Part shown: one piece after another, positions 1,237 to 49,667 of the stretch
Layout: every line of letters begins with the position of its first letter
How positions within the stretch are numbered: position 1 is the stretch's first letter
From: an uncultured Bdellovibrionales bacterium
Lineage (GTDB): Bacteria > Myxococcota > XYA12-FULL-58-9 > JASMKV01
Reading direction: 5' to 3'
Length of the DNA stretch: 50,196 nucleotides
NCBI GenBank assembly: GCA_964013445.1
Contig: CAXGWX010000003.1
Span: forward strand, 1-50,196
Notes under the pieces: model-generated
What the model saw: only the letters and a program-made list of their open reading frames with translations
What the model was told of the DNA's origin: nothing
Databases searched by the model: none
Position numbers and translations under genes: made by a program

Positions 1237-4200
1237 CAATCTCCCGAAGTAGAGGAGGAAGGGCAAAGTTTGCCGCAGAGCAGCGTCGAGCAGGAAGCAC
1301 CAAGAGCAGTCACGCAAGGAAGCATTAAGGCGGCGAAGGTCGAGTTAGAGGAATTGCCTTTGATCTTAGGTGCGGCGCGTAATTGCAGAGGGCGACGCGT
1401 CTTGCTAGTGTGCGCAGAAGGCGACACTCGTCAAATCACTCTGACACGAGCACTGGAAAGTCGTGGTGCGGATGTTCGGGTTTGTGATGATTTTCTTTCA
1501 CGCGCTCCTGCTGAATGGGAAAATGTGGTGGTTGACGCAACAGAACGTTGTGTCGATGACGTGTTTGTGCTTGTTCCCGAAAAGGATGAGTGGAGTGCGT
1601 CTAGTGTTAGTGCTCAAATCGAAGCGGTCTTCTTCTTGGCGCGGGCGCTGGCTCGTCGAGGAGATGACTTAGCGGACAAATCTTTTGCTGTTTTGGGGCG
1701 GTCTCGCGGTGTACTGTCTTCCGGGCCTCTTTCAGCTCAGGGGCTCTTTCTGAGTGGTGCATCAGGAATACTTAAGAGTATCGCTAAAGAGTGGCAGGCA
1801 AAGGTGTTGGTTTGTGATTTAGACTTCAGCTCTGCCATCGATGATGCTCTGGAGACAGGTCTCAACGAATGGCTTTCGGATGGTCCTATCGAAATAGGTT
1901 ATATCAAGGGGAAGCGTTATACGCTGAAAGATAGCCAAACCCTTTCCTTGAGTAAGGGAGCTCTAAAGAGTACTGACCTTGTTGTGGCCACGGGCGGAGC
2001 TCGAGGGGTTACTTTTAGTATACTGCATGATTTGGCGAAGCGTGGTTCTTTCCGACTTGTCGTTTTGGGCAGAACTCGTGCTATCGCTTTGAGCGAGAGC
2101 CCGCTGGCATCAATGGGCTTATCAGAACAAAAGGAACTTGCTCGTGCAAGTTTGCTTTCTGCGGGGGAAAAAGCAACGCCGGTAAATATTAGGCGATGGC
2201 TTGAAAAAGAAGAGCAGCGACTCGAGGTTTCGAAAAACTTAGATCTACTTCGAGGTTTGGGTTGCGAAGTTGAAACCGCAATATGTGATGTTTCTAAGCG
2301 TGGTGATGTTCAGGATACGGTATCGACTATTTCTAATCGCTATGGTCGTGTTGATTTACTCTTGCACGGTGCCGGCTTAGAGGAATCTAAATTTATTCAG
2401 GATAAGGACGACAGCGCTTTTGCTCGCGTGTTTGCTCCCAAAGCACAGGCGGCGCTTTTGCTATGGGAAGAATTACAGCCACGAAGAATGGTTTGTATGG
2501 GCTCGGTTGCAGGGCGTTACGGTAATGCGGCGCAAGCTGATTATGCGGCCGCCAATAATGTAATGTCCTCCTTGGCGGGAAGCGAAGAGAATAATGTGTT
2601 GAATATTGCCTGGACTGCTTGGGGTGGGGTGGGAATGGCTACACGTGGCTCTATCAAAAAAGTCCTCGAGGATGCGGGGGTTGAATTGTTGCCCCTGGAA
2701 ATAGGCTCAAGTATTGGTGCGGATTTGCTCGCGAGCGATGTTAAGGGCGAGGTTGTTGTTGCTGGAGAGCTTGGTTCTTTCGCACCTAGCGATGACGGCG
2801 GCGGCCAAAAAGGGTCGACCGGAGCTTCGGGCCAATTTTTTGAGCGCATTGGTGCGGAGGCAGGTAAAACCGTTTATTGCCGTCGCTTCGATGTTCATCA
2901 GGATCCTGGCTTAGATCACCACCGGATCAACGGAGTGCCTGTTTTGCCGGGAGTGCTTGGGATTGAATTGATGGTGCAGGCGGCCAGAGAACACTTTGGC
3001 CAGGACATCCCGGAATTGTCCGATATAAAGTTTAGTTCACCGTTAAAAATGTTTAGAGATGAGCCTGTAGATGTAGAGGTTGAGATTGCTTGGGAGGAGA
3101 GTCAGGTCGTGGCCCGTCTCATTTCTCTTTTTAAGGGGCCGAAGAAATTGCTGCGCAAAGAGCATTTTAGCGCACTTATTCATCTTGAAAGCACAAATGA
3201 CGAGCCAAGAGTGAAGCCATCATTCACGCAAAAGGAGTTTTCAGAAATCACGATTAAGCAAGCCTATGAGAGATATTTCCACGGGCCTCGCTTTAAGGTT
3301 ATGCAGGACCTTATCTCCTGGGATGGCAATGGATTGGTGAGCGCCTTGGCTCATGATCGACCGATTTGGATGCATAAGACCTCGCATACGGAATTCTCTT
3401 CTGCTCCTTTCATGCGTGAAGGTGCGTTCCAGACTGCCGGTCTGTGGGAAATGGTGCACTATGACCGTATGGCACTGCCCTTTGGAGTTAAGCGGGTTAT
3501 GTTTTTTCCTAATAACGCAGCGGAGGGCCCAGTTTACTCTTTCATCGCGAAGACAGGGGAAACGGAAAACGGGTTAATATTTGACTTGTGGTCAATCGAT
3601 GGAAGTGGACGAATTGTTGATTATATGGAGGGCTACGAGACAGTCAGGCTACGTGATTTTGCCGCCGCCGAATGTTTTGACCGACCGAGTCGGGAACCCG
3701 GGACCGATTTGCATGTCTGGCAAAGTATCCAAATTTCGGAAGCGCAAGAATTGCAGGAAAAAGGTGAAGACGAGTTGTCGAAGTTCCTTAGTTCAGGGGA
3801 AAGAGAAGTTTTTTCTGGTTTTACGAAGGACAAGCGTCGGGATGAGTGGTTGGCTGGGCGCATCGCATTAAAGCGTCTGCTTCGCGAAATATCCTTTAGC
3901 CAGAAGGGTGTTATTCTACCCTATACAGATATTGTGATTTATAACGATGCGGCTGGTACCCCTCATTTGGATGTTGTTGGCAGACCGGAACTAAATAGCG
4001 CAAGCGTCTCTATTTCTCATCGCATGGACATGGCAACAGCATCTTGTATTCTGGCGCCTGGACATAGGGTCGGCATCGATGTCGAGTTTATTGAAGAAAA
4101 GCAGAGCGCCTTTCTAAATACCTATTTTACCGCTGCAGAACAGGCTCTTTTCGACGAATCGGATAATTTGTCTTATCTTGTTAATGCATCCTGGGCGGTT

Positions 4201-43098: not shown

Positions 43099-44196
43099 TT
43101 GCGAACGTACGACCGTTATTTGCTGCGTGAGATTTTATTACCGCTTTTTGTTGGTCTGGGCCTCTTCTTTGTTGTGGTCGCCTTTGGGCAAGTATTAAAA
43201 ATATCTGACTCCTTAACTGGGCTTGGGGTGAGCGGTGGTCGTGTTTTTGAAGCGCTGATCTATTCTTTTCCGCCCTTAATGGGACTTCTCTTGCCGGTGA
43301 GCGCGCTCTTTGCGACTCTTTTAGGGGTAGGTCGCTTTGCTTCCGATCGAGAGGTGATTGGTTTTGCTTCTTTGGGAGTAAGTCCCTACCGCCTTTTTAA
43401 AGTTCCATTTCTTTTAGGCACATCTATTTCACTCATTTCTTGCTGGGCCATGGTTCAAGGTGAGCCATGGGGCATTCGCGGTTTGCGAAATTTGATGGCC
43501 TTTAGTGCCCAGGAGGCACTGGCTGGCGGAGTGCGTCCCGGTGAGTTTCATGAATGGGTATATGGCTTTACGTTTCGGGCAGAAGAAAAAGACGGTGATA
43601 ACTTAAAGGGGGTTTTGCTGGCGGACAGGCGGGATGCGGAAAAACCTATTGTTATTTCATCGGCCAGGGGGCGCATTCTTGGTGGCAAGAACGCGCAGGA
43701 CCTTATTTTCGATTTGCAAGACGGAACGATGTTACTTACGGATTCGGAAAAGTTGGCATCGCGCAAAATTTCCTTTGCTCAAGGGCAATACCGATTAAAT
43801 GTTGGCTCTCTGGTTGGTAACAAGGCAAGGACACTGCGAAAAATTCAGGAGAAAACATTAGGTGAACTTTGGGAGTTGTCGCTGCACGCACCGAAAGAAA
43901 AACACAGGCGCCAGGCGATTATTCTTTTGCATCGCAAATTTGCTCTGCCTTTGGCTGCTCTGATTTTTTCACTTCTTGCGGTGCCTTTGGCTTGCACGGC
44001 GCGCGGTGGTTCGAGGGCGAGAGGATTTCTATACTCGACCGCAATTGTTGGCGGGTACTATTATTTAGGAAGGGCAGTGGAGTTGTCGGCGCGGGCAGGC
44101 AACTTTGATCCAATACTCGCAGCCTGGCTTCCGGATCTTGTAGGTTTGGTGATGGCCGCAATCATGATTGTGCGCTTTAAAAGGACTTGGATCTAG
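43099..44196 (+). CDS. lptF: LPS export ABC transporter permease LptF (LptF/LptG family)
   Basis: YDRYLLREILLP, GRFASDRE...F..G, LAVPLA, AAWLPD; 3+3 TM layout around a periplasmic domain. Confidence 0.85.
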   Translation: MRTYDRYLLREILLPLFVGLGLFFVVVAFGQVLKISDSLTGLGVSGGRVFEALIYSFPPLMGLLLPVSALFATLLGVGRFASDREVIGFASLGVSPYRLFKVPFLLGTSISLISCWAMVQGEPWGIRGLRNLMAFSAQEALAGGVRPGEFHEWVYGFTFRAEEKDGDNLKGVLLADRRDAEKPIVISSARGRILGGKNAQDLIFDLQDGTMLLTDSEKLASRKISFAQGQYRLNVGSLVGNKARTLRKIQEKTLGELWELSLHAPKEKHRRQAIILLHRKFALPLAALIFSLLAVPLACTARGGSRARGFLYSTAIVGGYYYLGRAVELSARAGNFDPILAAWLPDLVGLVMAAIMIVRFKRTWI

Positions 44197-44198
44197 TC

Positions 44199-45278
44199 AT
44201 GCGCTTAGCTCGATATTTTGCAAAATACTATCTGATGGCGATTTCTTTGACTTGGTTTGCCTTGGTGGTGCTGGTTGTGGCTGCAATGCTTATCGAAAAA
44301 GCTGGGCAGTTGACCAAGCAGCCGGAAGCAGTCACCACTGCGCTGAAGTTAGCGCTCCTGAATGCACTGCCTTTTGGTTATCAGATGCTGCCTCTGGCTT
44401 GTTTTTTTGCACTTATTATTGTGGGCACATTTATGGCGCGCCGTGGCGAATGGTTGGCGGCGGAAGCGGGCGGCGTTAAGGGCATGGGACGCTGGGGCGG
44501 TTTGGCCTTTGTCACTTTGTGTTGTTCCTTTGGGGCTTACGCTGCGGGCGAAACAATCTTACCTATGGCTCTACATAAGATTGAGCACATTCAGCGCCAC
44601 GAATTAAAACGGGTCGATGCATTGACTCGATTTTATGAGCGCAGAAACCATTGGTATAAGGACGCAGACCATTATCTCTTTTTGCCGACTTTTGACCGCA
44701 AGAAAAAAGAATTTTACGAGCCTGTCATTTATAAAGCGGATGAGGGCAAGTTGAGCGAGATTTATGAAGGCCGTATCTTAAGAGAAAGTGCAGAGGGGTG
44801 GTTTCTTGTTGATGCACTTGTTTGGTCCGTGAACAGCCCGAAAGTAAAGCAGGTGGAGCGTTTGCAGGTCCACTTAAATGTTAGTGCAGGCAATTTGATG
44901 GATGTTACCGGTGACCCGAGGCAGATGACCCACAGTGAAATTCAGAGACTTATTGAGGATAGGGAAAAGGCTGGTTTTGATACGGCAATACACATTTTGG
45001 AGAAGGAGCAAAGGATTGGTTACCCTTTGGCGGCCCTGGCGCTTTTCTTTCTTATGTTGCCCTGGGCATTGCAGCCCGCTTTACGTCGCTCGATGGCAGT
45101 GAATTTAGGTGTGGGGGTTGTGATTATCAGTGTGCTTTTATCCCTGAGCCATTTTGTGCGCATGCTTGCGCTGGGGCAAAAGATTCCTGTTGCCTTGGGG
45201 GGATGGGGCCTAACACTCGTGTGTCTGGTTTTTATGCCTCTGTCTTATTTTCTCTATAGGCGGCGCTACTTAGTCTAG
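44199..45278 (+). CDS. lptG: LPS export ABC transporter permease LptG (LptF/LptG family)
   Basis: LARYF, MARRGEWLA.EAGG, second tandem paralog following lptF. Confidence 0.82.
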   Translation: MRLARYFAKYYLMAISLTWFALVVLVVAAMLIEKAGQLTKQPEAVTTALKLALLNALPFGYQMLPLACFFALIIVGTFMARRGEWLAAEAGGVKGMGRWGGLAFVTLCCSFGAYAAGETILPMALHKIEHIQRHELKRVDALTRFYERRNHWYKDADHYLFLPTFDRKKKEFYEPVIYKADEGKLSEIYEGRILRESAEGWFLVDALVWSVNSPKVKQVERLQVHLNVSAGNLMDVTGDPRQMTHSEIQRLIEDREKAGFDTAIHILEKEQRIGYPLAALALFFLMLPWALQPALRRSMAVNLGVGVVIISVLLSLSHFVRMLALGQKIPVALGGWGLTLVCLVFMPLSYFLYRRRYLV

Positions 45279-46271
45279 ACTGGCGAGTTTTGTGACTAAG
45301 TCCACAACCCGATTAGAGTAGCCCCATTCGTTGTCATACCAGGAAACAACCCGCGCAAAGCCGTCGCCCTGTGCCTGTGTAAGTAAGGAATCAAAAATCG
45401 ACGAATGTGGATTGCCGACAATATCACTGGACACTAAGGGGATCTCTGAGAATTGTAGAATGCCTTGTAGTTTCTCATTAGCGGCACTTTGCACAGCAGC
45501 ATTGATTTCTTCAGCAGAAGGTTGAGCTTTGAGTCGCACGACCAAATCAACGATAGAACCATCGGAGACAGGGACCCGCACCGCCATACCGTCGAGGCGC
45601 CCTTCAAGATGAGGAAGTATTTTGCCGACAGCCTTTGCTGCGCCGGTTGTGGTTGGAATAATGTTTTCCGCCGCTGCCCTCGAGCGACGAAAATCCTTAT
45701 GGGGTACATCCGCCAAGCGCTGGTCATTGGTAAAGGCGTGCACCGTTGTCATGACACCGTCATCAATGCCAAAGGCCTCGTCAAGAACATAGGCGATGGG
45801 GGCCAAGCAGTTTGTGGTGCAGGAGGCATTCGAGACGATTCGGTGCGAGGCAAGAAGTTGATCATCGTTCACCCCCATAACGATCATGGCGTCAATTTCA
45901 TCTTTGGGTGGAACGGTTAAAATGACCCTTTTGGCTCCAGCTTGGAGGTGTTTTTCGAGAGTTTCTTTGTCGCGAAAAATCCCCGTTGATTCAATCACCA
46001 CATCAACGTTCAAATCGCCCCATTTGAGGGCAGCCGGGTCCTTTTCATTGGTAATGTTAACGTGTTCTCCGGCAACGATGAGTCCGGTGTTGTCGTAATC
46101 CACATCTTTGCGAAATACACCCATCACCGTGTCGTACTGCAAAAGGTAGGCGAGGGTTTTATTGTCGAAGAGATCGTTGATGCCAACGACTTCAATGTTT
46201 TCGTTGCCGCTTAGAACACGAAAGACTGATCGACCAATTCGGCCAAAGCCATTGATTGCTACTCGAATCAT
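45270..46271 (-). CDS. gap: Type I glyceraldehyde-3-phosphate dehydrogenase (intact active site)
   Basis: INGFGRIGR, SNASCTTNC, TTVHA, IIPTTTGAA, GMAVRVP, WYDNEWGYS. Confidence 0.96.
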   Translation of the reverse strand: MIRVAINGFGRIGRSVFRVLSGNENIEVVGINDLFDNKTLAYLLQYDTVMGVFRKDVDYDNTGLIVAGEHVNITNEKDPAALKWGDLNVDVVIESTGIFRDKETLEKHLQAGAKRVILTVPPKDEIDAMIVMGVNDDQLLASHRIVSNASCTTNCLAPIAYVLDEAFGIDDGVMTTVHAFTNDQRLADVPHKDFRRSRAAAENIIPTTTGAAKAVGKILPHLEGRLDGMAVRVPVSDGSIVDLVVRLKAQPSAEEINAAVQSAANEKLQGILQFSEIPLVSSDIVGNPHSSIFDSLLTQAQGDGFARVVSWYDNEWGYSNRVVDLVTKLASLD

Positions 46272-47281
46272 GTGGTGAGCCCCTTTTGTTCCAGGTGCTC
46301 CATGACTTCGACGACGCGGTGCGCATAACCCCAGCCGTTGTCGTACCAGGCAATCATTTTCACGAGATTGTCTCCCATGGTGCTGGTGGCCAGGGAGTCG
46401 AAGACCGACGAGTGTGGGCTTTGCTTCACATCCGAGGATACAATGGGGTCGTCAACATATTCGATGAGATCTTTAAAGTCGGATTCCGCAGCGCTTTCCA
46501 CCGCAGCGTTGATGCTCTCGGCAGTGATGGGCTGTTTGGTGTGGGCTACCATGTCGAGAAGAGAGCCGTTGATCACTGGGACATTCAAGGTCATGGCGCT
46601 TACTTTGCCTTCTAATTGCGGCAATACATCCATGAGTATGTGGGCGGTGGATGTTTGGCTTGGAATAATATTTTCCGAGGCTGCCCGTGAGCGGCGCATT
46701 TCGTAGGAAGGGACATCTGAGAGGCTTTGGTCATTGGTGTAAGCATGTACGGAGGTGACGTGAAGCCGTTCAATGCCGAAGGCCTGATCAATAACTTTAG
46801 CGATGGGGGTGGCACAGTGTGCGGTGATGGATGCATTGGATATAATTTTATGCTCCGCTCCGAGTTGGTCCTCATTGACGCCCATGACCACCGTGATGTC
46901 CGCTTTGTCGGTCGGTGCAACGCAGAGAATGAGTCGCTTGGCCCCTGCATCAATATGCTTACTCAGGGTGGCATATGACATGTGTTTGCGGGTGGCTTCA
47001 ATAACGATGTCCACATTATGCTCGCGCCAATCCACATCACCAGGCTCTTTGCCATAGAGCATGGTGGTGGCTTTACCACGGGCAAAGAGTTGGTCGTTGG
47101 CGATGCTCACCTTGTGTGGGAAGCGGCCAAGAATCGTGTCGTAGCTGAGTAGATAGGCGAGATTTTCGTGGTCGGCGATATCGCTGATTGCAACCACATC
47201 GATATCGTCACGGCCGTGCAGAATTCGAAAAATCGAACGCCCAAGACGACCAAAGCCCATGATGCCAACGCGTAAGGTCAT
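46268..47281 (-). CDS. GAPDH-family paralog lacking the catalytic cysteine (probable pseudoenzyme)
   Basis: Full-length GAPDH fold (GFGRLGR, MGVN, VHAYT, RRSRAA.ENIIP, VSSD, WYDN) but SNASITAHC replaces SNASCTTNC. Confidence 0.88.
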   Translation of the reverse strand: MTLRVGIMGFGRLGRSIFRILHGRDDIDVVAISDIADHENLAYLLSYDTILGRFPHKVSIANDQLFARGKATTMLYGKEPGDVDWREHNVDIVIEATRKHMSYATLSKHIDAGAKRLILCVAPTDKADITVVMGVNEDQLGAEHKIISNASITAHCATPIAKVIDQAFGIERLHVTSVHAYTNDQSLSDVPSYEMRRSRAASENIIPSQTSTAHILMDVLPQLEGKVSAMTLNVPVINGSLLDMVAHTKQPITAESINAAVESAAESDFKDLIEYVDDPIVSSDVKQSPHSSVFDSLATSTMGDNLVKMIAWYDNGWGYAHRVVEVMEHLEQKGLTT

Positions 47282-47333: not shown

Positions 47334-48740
47334 TTATTTCGGAGCGATCATCTCCTCGGGCCGAACCGCTGCATGAAATTGCTCCGCATCGAGAAGGCCA
47401 AGTTCTGTGACTGATTCTTCGAGTGTGATGCCTTTTTCGTGGGCATTTTTTGCCACCTTTGCCGCATTGTCGTAACCGATAACCGGATTTAAGGCGGTAA
47501 CAAGCATCAGAGAATTTTTTAAGTGATTGGCAATATTTGTTGCGTTCGGTTCGATGCCGAGCACACAGTTTTGGGTGAAGGATATGGAAGCGTCAGCCAG
47601 GAGACGGGCCGAGTTCAATAGATTGAAAATCAGCACCGGCTTATAAACATTGAGCTCAAAATTTCCGGAAGCTGCCGCAAAACCAATTGCCGCATCGTTA
47701 CCCATAACCTGCACGCAAACCATGGTCATGGCTTCGGCTTGGGTCGGGTTAACTTTGCCAGGCATAATCGACGAGCCGGGTTCGTTGGCGGGCAGATTTA
47801 ATTCGCCAACACCACAGCGGGGACCGGAGCCGAGCCATCGAATGTCATTGGCAATTTTCATCAAAGACGCGGCCAGTGTTTTTAAAGCACCGCTGGCAAT
47901 GACCATGGCCTCATGGCCGGCGAGAGCGGCGAATTTATTTGGTGCGGTGATAAAGGCACGGCCCGTAAGTTTGGCAATATGCTCTGCAACTTTAGTGGCA
48001 AACTCTGGATGGGTATTGAGCCCGGTGCCGACAGCGGTTCCTCCCTGCGCCAGCTCACACAATGGTGGCAATGCCTTGTTAAGGGCGTTGATGCCATAAT
48101 CAAGTTGGGCCACATAGCCGGAAAATTCCTGACCTAAGGTCAGAGGGGTGGCATCCATTAAATGGGTGCGGCCAATCTTAACGATGTCTTTAAAGCCTTT
48201 GGCTTTATCGTTTAAGGCGTTACGGATTTCCATGAGTGCAGGAATAAGATTGCCTTCAAGACTTTCGACCGCCGCAACATGCATCACGGTTGGAAACACA
48301 TCATTCGAACTTTGTGACATATTCACATGGTCGTTAGGGTGGACAGGACTTTTTGAGCCAAGTTCTCCGCCTAAAATTTCAATGGCGCGGTTGGCGATGA
48401 CTTCATTGGAGTTCATATTGCTTTGGGTGCCGCTGCCGGTTTGCCAAACAACGAGTGGGAAATGGTCATCGAGTTTGCCTTCGATGACTTCGTCCGCAGC
48501 TTGCACAATTGCATCGGCCAGGTTTTTGTCGAGTTTGCCTAAGTCGAGATTGGCTAAGGCCGCAGCTTTTTTCACCACACCTAAGGCGCGGATGACTTCA
48601 CGGGGGAAGTGGTCATGACCAATCTTGAAATTGTGTAATGAGCGCTGGGTTTGCGCCCCCCAATAACGGTCAGCGGGAACCTCAAGGGTACCCATGGTAT
48701 CTTTTTCTAAACGGACATTTTTTGTATTTGTTTCACTCAT
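47334..48740 (-). CDS. fumC: Class II fumarate hydratase
   Basis: [44 protein letters not shown]. Confidence 0.97.
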
Positions 48741-48908
48741 GGGCAGGGGACTTTAGTGCTAAAAAGCCATCCGTTCAAGCTTTCTAAACCCCTTATAATA
48801 AAAGTTTTTTCGATATATGTCCTTTTGCTCGGATTTTCCCTATGGTGACTTGAATAGGTGCTGGACTGGTGCGTCTAAGCAAGAGTGATTTATCTTAAGG
48901 AGGAATCC

Positions 48909-49667
48909 ATGTGGAATAGAATGCCTTTTCGTTTATCCTGGCTTTTGTGTTTTGTGCTGCTTGGGGCTTGCGGTGATGTCACCAAGAGCAATGGAGAATT
49001 TAATCGGGTCAGTTATTCGCTTTATACGACCTATCTCGTCGATGAATCGAGTCTAACGGACGTCTCTTTATTGATCGGCTACGATCAACGCATCAACACA
49101 TCGCTGACAGTCTCGGGTGCTTCGGAGACCGAAGAACCTTTTAAGCTCTTGCATAAGATTTCGCCCGATGCGTCCATCAATGTTTTTGAGGATGGTTTTG
49201 ATGTGCCGGATATGACTTTAAAGGTCACGAGCCCTGGTGAGTATACTTTAGAAACCACCAAGGGTGACGATGTTTTTGATCGCATCAAGCTCAACTTTGA
49301 TGTGCCTGCTTCTTTGGACCCGATTGTTTGGGTAAGGGCAGAAGGGGCAGAGGAATTCACCAAGAGTGGATCGAATACGGATGTGAGTGTTGAAGTTGGT
49401 GACCAGGTGACTTTCTTACCCGTACCGGTGGATGCAAGTGGCGAGCGTTTGCTCGGGGATTTGGAAACAGAAATTTCTCTCGACAACCCTGGCTTGGCGG
49501 TTGCAGTGGAAAACGTGCACGGTGTTTATGAACAACGGGTCTGGTCGAGTTCGATGCCTGTTTCGTTGATTTTTGTTGAGGAAGGCACTCTTGTGGTGAC
49601 CTTAAAAGATGTGGTCAACAATGTTGAAACGAATGTAAACTTTACGGTGAGCGTACCAGCGTCTTAA
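48909..49667 (+). CDS. Hypothetical lipoprotein (beta-rich, possibly Ig-like)
   Basis: AAGGAGG SD before ATG 48909; lipobox LLGAC. Confidence 0.75.
   Translation: MWNRMPFRLSWLLCFVLLGACGDVTKSNGEFNRVSYSLYTTYLVDESSLTDVSLLIGYDQRINTSLTVSGASETEEPFKLLHKISPDASINVFEDGFDVPDMTLKVTSPGEYTLETTKGDDVFDRIKLNFDVPASLDPIVWVRAEGAEEFTKSGSNTDVSVEVGDQVTFLPVPVDASGERLLGDLETEISLDNPGLAVAVENVHGVYEQRVWSSSMPVSLIFVEEGTLVVTLKDVVNNVETNVNFTVSVPAS

Follow-up and report, generated by a model that had tools for sequence, protein, structure and literature searches.

A GAPDH-like protein without the catalytic cysteine as a candidate non-catalytic partner of a bacterial glyceraldehyde-3-phosphate dehydrogenase

Two adjacent gap genes with different active sites

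The window analyzed here, that is the whole stretch of 50,196 nucleotides from an uncultured Bdellovibrionales bacterium (contig CAXGWX010000003.1 of assembly GCA_964013445.1), carries on its minus strand two adjacent genes for proteins of the glyceraldehyde-3-phosphate dehydrogenase (GAPDH) type. The upstream GAPDH-like gene, in the following called X (protein P0001), runs directly into a downstream canonical gap gene, called C (protein P0002), with the stop codon of the former and the start codon of the latter sharing an ATGA (Table 1). An earlier note on this DNA, made from its letters alone, had described the two genes as paralogs coupled by this overlap, the downstream copy being canonical and the upstream copy a full-length pseudoenzyme; the open reading frame (ORF) coordinates confirm the overlap. 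Both proteins contain the Pfam domains Gp_dh_N and Gp_dh_C and share 49% identity over 328 residues in an ungapped alignment. The canonical nature of C is likewise upheld, since it carries the motifs SNASCTTNC, TTTGAAKA, GMAVRVP, and WYDNEWGY and scores above the cutoff of the type I GAPDH equivalog model TIGR01534.

In GAPDH, Cys149 is the essential nucleophile and His176 the catalytic base, Arg231 belongs to the Ps phosphate site, and Thr208-Gly209 to the Pi phosphate site. In X, the active-site stretch reads SNASITAHC, with an isoleucine at the place of Cys149 whose codon is two base changes away from TGC, and Arg231 is replaced by asparagine (AMTLNVP in place of GMAVRVP). Further substitutions in comparison to canonical GAPDH are Gly209 to Ser (within IIPSQTSTAH, thus IIPSQTST for IIPTTTGA), Glu314 to Gly (YDNGWGY for YDNEWGY), and Asn6 to Met (MGFGR for NGFGR). 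Retained are the GxGxxG motif (GFGRLGR), the acidic residue Asp32 (ISD), the catalytic His176 (SVHAYT), Asn313 (YDN), and the S-loop, and the reading frame is intact, with neither an internal stop nor a frameshift. The motifs, the two replaced codons, the retained elements, and the uninterrupted frame are all as the earlier note had read them.

Despite clear domain scores (97.6 bits for PF00044 and 165.3 bits for PF02800), X reaches only 331.0 bits with TIGR01534, which is under the cutoff of 367.2. It also fails the Epd models (TIGR01532, 294.1 bits against a cutoff of 530.55; NF010058, 290.0 against 539), in addition to lacking Cys149, as well as the model of the ArsJ-associated GAPDH (NF033735, 282.4 against 450), and no arsJ gene lies nearby. 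None of the GAPDH-related enzyme models of NCBIfam reaches its cutoff on X. With the equivalog cutoff failed and Cys149, Arg231, and Gly209 missing, X is, on sequence grounds, not a functional type I GAPDH. Since it possesses neither the nucleophile nor the substrate-phosphate arginine, the thioester chemistry of GAPDH is impossible for it, and X is thus predicted to be unable to perform the covalent reaction.

The AlphaFold2 monomer model of X (mean pLDDT, the predicted local confidence, 91.4; pTM, the predicted TM score, 0.89) matches the GAPDH structure 1gd1 with a TM score of 0.93. Residues 182-186 and 190-203, which belong to the S-loop, have pLDDT values <50 in this model, and we read this low confidence as pointing to a loop that may be ordered only in the oligomer. 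Sequence and fold searches in the ESM Atlas and the Protein Data Bank (PDB) returned only ordinary GAPDH or erythrose-4-phosphate dehydrogenase (E4PDH), and no solved structure of the X type was among the PDB matches listed.

The genome to which the window belongs (3.6 Mb, 92% complete) contains three GAPDH-type genes, namely X, C, and one on another contig (C349). The latter is of the ArsJ-associated type (NF033735, 471.8 bits against a cutoff of 450) and overlaps the organoarsenical efflux gene arsJ (NF033734, 490.7 bits against 400). As this third copy is linked to ArsJ, C remains as the single housekeeping GAPDH detected in the 92%-complete genome. The organism itself is marine, because its sequence occurs in marine metagenome runs of several studies.

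The X family and its pairing with canonical gap

X is not confined to this genome. In a database survey comprising the best 120 protein matches, the relatives of P0001 included P0004 (88% identity) and P0005 (83%), and the nearest 77 database clusters, down to 57% identity, were all full length and all without Cys149. Among the 120 matches, the residue at position 149 was I in 61, C in 27, V in 20, N in 6, G in 3, M in 2, and A in 1; Arg231 was found in none of them (N 69, K 49, S 2), and a glycine stood at the place of Glu314 in all. The best match to P0001 in a metagenome scan for close relatives was only 58% identical. When one genome per species was scanned, at least 598 stretches matched, of which the best 80 loci were analyzed. 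By their titles, all of these 80 are records of metagenome-assembled genomes (MAGs); according to their NCBI labels, 51 belong to Acidobacteriota and 6 to Desulfobacteria, 8 have no phylum label, and 1 to 4 loci each come from Eiseniibacteriota, Myxococcota, Planctomycetota, Acidimicrobiia, Krumholzibacteriota, Bdellovibrionota, and 'Gammaproteobacteria'.

A FastTree phylogeny of 195 GAPDH sequences separated 90 X-type from 105 canonical rows by a branch with 99% support. The same split was obtained in a 92-row site-mixture tree (SH-aLRT 99), which is a quick tree with the careful search unfinished. The X family is monophyletic and old, and it is found across several phyla. A special clade of canonical partners was considered as well and is not supported; in the 92-row tree the partners need 3 changes against the unpaired GAPDHs, so that no such clade can be claimed. 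In public records, X proteins bear the names 'GAPDH (phosphorylating)', 'type I GAPDH', 'aldehyde dehydrogenase', or 'GAPDH NAD-binding domain-containing protein', and beyond the generic domains neither NCBIfam nor Pfam holds a curated model for the family. No bacterial GAPDH pseudoenzyme and no X-C gene pair was found in the full-text literature searched, the coverage of which does not extend to subscription journals and supplements.

Of the 80 genome loci, 77 have a canonical gap downstream of X on the same strand, and the remaining three (L034, L102, and L105) are cut by contig ends. A metagenome scan yielded an X-type gene in 23 of 80 loci, each of the 23 being followed by a canonical ORF whose end lies about 1 kb downstream. 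The adjacent pair is present in 10 of 40 relatives of the window genome, X being first in all of them; the genome G001 of the same genus holds both genes on contig ends. In the class of genome G041, the adjacent pair occurs in 23 of 61 sampled genomes (22 of 60 if the unpublished G047 is excluded), and in 17 of these 23 pair-bearing genomes, as well as in G041 and G043, the pair represents the only two GAPDH matches. Across about 110 loci with a contig long enough for this to be judged, no X was encountered without a canonical gap directly downstream. Finding the same arrangement in more than 100 independent loci implies that the pairing is more than chance. X is part of a widespread two-gene GAPDH module that has been overlooked. 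One of the 77 pairs deviates in its second gene: at L055 (7021-9631, an Acidobacteriota MAG), the coding sequence of the canonical partner is spread over three frames, reflecting either a broken gene or an assembly error, and this is the sole case of its kind.

Of 69 pairs with both genes callable over their full length, 59 show an overlap between the stop codon of X and the start codon of the partner, which measures 4 nt in 38 pairs, 1 nt in 20, and 10 nt in 1, starts having been called by a rule on which these counts depend; nine of the other pairs show gaps of 0-19 nt and one a gap of 157 nt. This conserved overlap fits co-translation of X and C. Glycolytic genes are found next to the pair in some of 48 loci, namely phosphofructokinase in 9, glycerate kinase in 5, phosphoglycerate kinase together with cofactor-independent phosphoglycerate mutase in 3, and pyruvate kinase in 1, and the other neighboring genes vary between loci. 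Distance matrices of X and its partner are correlated (r 0.81, a value reached in 0 of 999 permutations), with X about 1.33 times as divergent, so that X and C are inherited together as one unit.

Tabulating residues 149 and 231 alongside such a search for adjacent pairs, as the earlier note had proposed, showed how unevenly the active site is preserved. Of the 90 X proteins of the 195-sequence tree, 54 have retained Cys149, its place being taken in the others by I (10), S (8), N (5), V (5), P (3), G (2), A (2), or M (1); Cys153 is present in 48, Arg231 in 7 (N in 72), and Gly209 in 2. Much better preserved are His176 (89/90), Ser148 and Thr150 (88/90 each), Asp32 (85/90), Thr179 and Asn313 (82/90 each), and Thr208 (74/90), and the family has also retained the GxGxxG motif. 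The canonical proteins keep Cys149, His176, and Arg231 in 105 of 105 cases. Residues specific to X, again out of 90, are Ala95 (90), Gly314 (78), Met6 (74), Asn231 (72), Ala151 (68), and His152 (66). As column identity averages 63% in an alignment of 68 X sequences, the nucleophile, with 54 of 90, is about as conserved as an average column. Changes between the Cys and non-Cys states number 9 on the FastTree tree and 11 on the IQ-TREE tree, at least 5 of them being forced by well-supported branches. By this pattern, the nucleophile is dispensable for the X family and has been lost repeatedly under the same constraint. A well-supported subclade of seven members (L011, L041, L042, L051, L069, L074, and L085) retains both Cys149 and Arg231 next to the X signatures ETNA (for TTGA) and WFDN[SG]WGY, and its members may still be active. 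A simple stepwise order of decay finds no support, as this subclade is nested in the tree and not basal.

Of all 20-residue blocks of X, the S-loop varies least, with a mean entropy of 0.77. In GAPDH tetramers this loop forms a subunit interface and borders the NAD of the neighboring subunit. Its consensus in X (HAYTNqQRLADVP..d.RrgRAAaENIIP) matches that of the partner (QRLADVPH..RRSRAA.eNIIP), and the consensus of unpaired GAPDHs (rilDlphkD.RRaRAA) is unlike both.

Selection on X was estimated from 181 pairwise comparisons with dS <1 (Nei-Gojobori). X, with a range of 0.05-0.59, had a median dN/dS of 0.27 and its partner one of 0.24, and the median dN ratio of X to C was 1.2; the comparisons are non-independent, and the ratio may be inflated in genomes of high GC content. 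Where both X genes were Cys-less (n = 12), the values were 0.21-0.51. For the window itself, the estimate comes from a 119-codon fragment of X in G001 (92% identical, dN 0.037, dS 1.59; for fumC, the gene upstream of X, dN 0.024 and dS 1.32 against the same genome) and from population variants on contigs of three marine metagenome runs covering the region. These variants, given as synonymous/non-synonymous, amount to 14/1 in X (K333E), 9/1 in C, and 11/0 in fumC, without any indels. Purifying selection on X is about as strong as on its partner C. Neutral decay, which the earlier note had set against its own proposal, is not borne out: with dN/dS far below 1 and X present in relatives, the gene is not decaying.

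The order of genes on the minus strand of the window is fumC, X, and C, and the earlier note was right in placing fumC directly upstream and in finding neither pgk nor tpi adjacent to the pair. Only 52 nt separate fumC from X, and fumC also lies upstream of X in G001. Because no terminator-like site was found between fumC and X, both are probably part of one transcript; a sigma-70-like promoter match lies upstream of fumC, with such matches being fewer in the region than in shuffled sequences. Within the end of X, a Shine-Dalgarno-like AAGGGG may serve the start of C, 8 nt before its ATG. On the other side, an lptG-like gene is convergent to gap C, their 3′-ends overlapping by 9 nt (45270-45278), and no terminator-like site was found between these two either. 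Divergent from fumC is an ORF for a protein with an N-terminal hydrophobic stretch, which no NCBIfam model matched at E<=1e-10.

Table 1. Positions of X, C, and other features of the window, and of the third gap gene of the genome
Feature	Position	Strand	Basis or remark
X (P0001), GAPDH-like, 337 aa	46268..47281	-	stop 46268-46270; ORF, domain, and motif evidence
C (P0002), canonical type I GAPDH, 333 aa	45270..46271	-	TIGR01534, 434.9 bits vs cutoff 367.2
ATGA overlap of X stop and C start	46268..46271	-	read from sequence; X stop TGA at 46270-46268, C start ATG at 46271-46269
Ile152 of P0001, codon ATC, at the place of nucleophile Cys149	46826..46828	-	codon read from sequence
Asn233 of P0001, codon AAT, at the place of Arg231	46583..46585	-	codon read from sequence
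S-loop coding stretch of X (P0001 residues 182-204)	46670..46738	-	computed from gene start
Shine-Dalgarno-like AAGGGG in X end	46280..46285	-	putative, from sequence
164-nt marine metatranscriptome contig bridging the X/C junction	46205..46365	.	run X17, record 15; zero differences
fumC, class II fumarase	47334..48740	-	TIGR00979, 786 bits vs cutoff 664.75
Sigma-70-like promoter match	48795..48823	-	consensus match; the region's only one
lptG-like gene	44187..45278	+	ORF
260-aa ORF	48885..49667	+	ORF
Third gap and arsJ (locus L003, G000 contig C349, 2.7 kb)	38-1327 and 1270-2277	-	arsenate-resistance pair

Proposed role of X and competing explanations

The loss of catalytic residues, the age of the family, the constant adjacency to gap, the overlaps, and a purifying selection like that on the partner lead us to propose that X is probably a non-catalytic subunit produced together with C and acting with it, most likely in a mixed X/C tetramer. 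The view taken in the earlier note is thus partly supported: the lost Cys149 and Arg231 bear out the loss of catalysis, selection speaks against decay, and overlaps in 59 of 69 pairs fit co-translation, with the heterotetramer and an effect of X on C as proposed parts. The picture of a single odd pair has to give way to that of a large and old family. According to this proposal, X is a folded GAPDH paralog that bears an NAD pocket and has lost the thioester reaction. X and C would be made in about equal amounts from overlapping, translationally coupled genes and would assemble into a mixed tetramer with X as the non-catalytic subunit, in which the conserved S-loop of X would pack against C and border its cofactor site. 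Through its kept pocket X may bind NAD(H), and it may in this way or another exert a regulatory effect on C. In a stricter form, which we put forward as a tentative possibility, the housekeeping GAPDH of several phyla would be an obligate X2C2 tetramer, two of its four sites being permanently dead, with the S-loop of X completing the cofactor pocket of C and the NAD pocket of X acting as an allosteric NAD(H) sensor.

Several observations weigh against such a partnership. As many as 54 of 90 X members keep Cys149 together with His176, so that some of them could have remained enzymes, and loss of activity is not established for the entire family. The conserved pocket residues (Ser148, Thr150, Thr179, and Thr208) in combination with the X-specific substitutions could also indicate a new ligand or reaction. 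Identity of X to its own partner shows no excess over that to foreign partners, neither for the whole protein nor for the S-loop or three other segments (differences <=0.002; the observed value was reached in 202-1345 of 2000 permutations). This argues against gene conversion and, as far as such a comparison of sequences goes, is no positive sign of co-adaptation. The low-pLDDT S-loop in the monomer model of X stands without a fold of the partner C as control. Support from transcription consists of one short RNA-library contig of 164 nt bridging the junction, which is a weak hint at a bicistronic X/C transcript, as DNA can occur in such a library. Finally, a search for fusions among homologous proteins longer than X (43 matches) brought up three candidates with X first and C second (P0317, P0318, and P0319), which were rejected, each being a single sequence on one contig. 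The linkers of P0317 and P0318 read like a frameshifted C-terminus of X, and the X-type WYDN motif is found in none of the three, so these proteins look like frameshift artefacts.

Other long proteins with GAPDH domains were noted as well. Metagenome proteins of 640-920 aa (P0320, P0328-P0330, P0337-P0342, and others) combine GAPDH and phosphoglycerate kinase domains within a single polypeptide and look like natural fusions, one cluster comprising 29 members. P0123 (2089 aa) contains four separate GAPDH-like stretches, with four active-site-like motifs alternating between SNASCTTNC and SAASCTTNA.

Among the alternatives, it is conceivable, albeit unlikely, that X forms a separate homo-oligomer outside the GAPDH tetramer, with a non-GAPDH role as NAD(H) sensor/regulator or moonlighting binder, and shares an operon with C for co-regulation. 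Such a role would agree with NAD motifs being kept next to a lost catalytic site, with the conserved substitutions of its own that X shows around the pocket, and with the lack of covariation with its own partner, and a non-enzymatic GAPDH-like protein of trypanosomatids provides a precedent (PMC4106842). However, an independent protein would not be expected to be found always directly upstream of a canonical gap, the stop/start overlap in most pairs is tighter than co-regulation requires, and the best-conserved block of X is precisely the GAPDH subunit interface, bearing the signature of the partner.

With still lower probability, X could be an enzyme after all, namely an NAD(P)-dependent dehydrogenase or reductase that uses another substrate or a mechanism without the Cys149 thioester. 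The conservation of His176 and of the four pocket residues named above, the family-specific Asn231, His152, and Gly314, the many members with Cys149, and the seven-member subclade with both Cys149 and Arg231 would all be compatible with this. On the other hand, position 149 is occupied by I, V, S, N, P, G, A, or M, which is chemically inconsistent, Cys153 is kept in just 48 of 90 members with many being Cys-less at both places, all GAPDH-related models of NCBIfam remain below their cutoffs, and selection is of the same strength in the Cys-less lineages. A recently inactivated duplicate en route to loss by neutral decay, in favor of which only the lost catalytic residues speak, has practically no probability left and is excluded by the selection data, given the intact frame, dN/dS values of 0.05-0.59 across all comparisons, 14 synonymous against 1 non-synonymous population variants without indels, the 77 nearest clusters being Cys-less and full length throughout, and a family spanning several phyla.

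Significance and comparison with known systems

GAPDH is a heavily studied enzyme, and its bacterial form is regarded as a homotetramer. If X proves to be a subunit, many environmental bacteria, including Acidobacteriota, Myxococcota, and Desulfobacteria-type members, would have as their main glycolytic/gluconeogenic GAPDH a two-gene heteromer with a dead partner. The labels of X in public records would then be misleading and GAPDH would be counted twice in metabolic reconstructions. A widespread bacterial case would be added to the few well-documented dead-paralog subunits, and a natural system would be at hand for studying cooperativity and half-of-sites reactivity of GAPDH. Should the obligate X2C2 form apply, it would represent a hard-wired version of the half-of-the-sites reactivity and negative cooperativity long debated for homotetrameric GAPDH, and the gradation of family members between Cys/Arg-bearing and fully dead ones would allow watching an enzyme become a pseudoenzyme. 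Even if X acts alone, it constitutes a large and strongly selected family without a curated model.

In comparison to type I GAPDH (GapA; TIGR01534; 1gd1), X likewise has two domains, a similar length, and the same predicted fold (TM 0.93); it differs from it in lacking Cys149, Arg231, Gly209, and Glu314, in scoring under the equivalog cutoff, and in being the first gene of a pair. The chloroplast A2B2 GAPDH (GapA/GapB; 2pkq and 7q53 are among the PDB matches listed) is, to our knowledge, the only well-known natural GAPDH heterotetramer and is built from two paralogs, as would be the case for X and C. Both subunits of the chloroplast enzyme are catalytic and GapB has a regulatory C-terminal extension, whereas X lacks Cys149 and any such extension (337 against 333 aa), and its heteromer with C is so far a proposal. 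In the aspartate transcarbamoylase (ATCase) of Pseudomonas, PyrC' is an inactive dihydroorotase-like subunit whose gene overlaps pyrB; it shares the overlapping-gene arrangement with X but belongs to a different enzyme family.

Among GAPDH-like proteins, TbGAPDHL, a component of the trypanosomatid paraflagellar rod, has its nucleophilic Cys replaced by Pro and keeps a cofactor-like pocket; it is reported to be unpaired with an active copy and much less conserved than the active isoforms (PMC4106842). By this description, both TbGAPDHL and X combine a missing Cys with a kept pocket, X being bacterial, operon-coupled, and conserved like its partner. The deoxyhypusine synthase and S-adenosylmethionine decarboxylase (AdoMetDC) prozyme systems of trypanosomatids are reported to contain dead paralogs as activator subunits (PMC3663545, PMC5201418). 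There, a dead paralog is kept by selection, forms a hetero-oligomer with the active paralog, and is needed by it; for X, the complex and the effect on C are proposed, and the enzyme families are different. X shows three of the features that mark dead-paralog partners, namely loss of essential residues, purifying selection, and constant co-occurrence with an active paralog, and in its mode of action it would be closest to such dead-paralog subunits.

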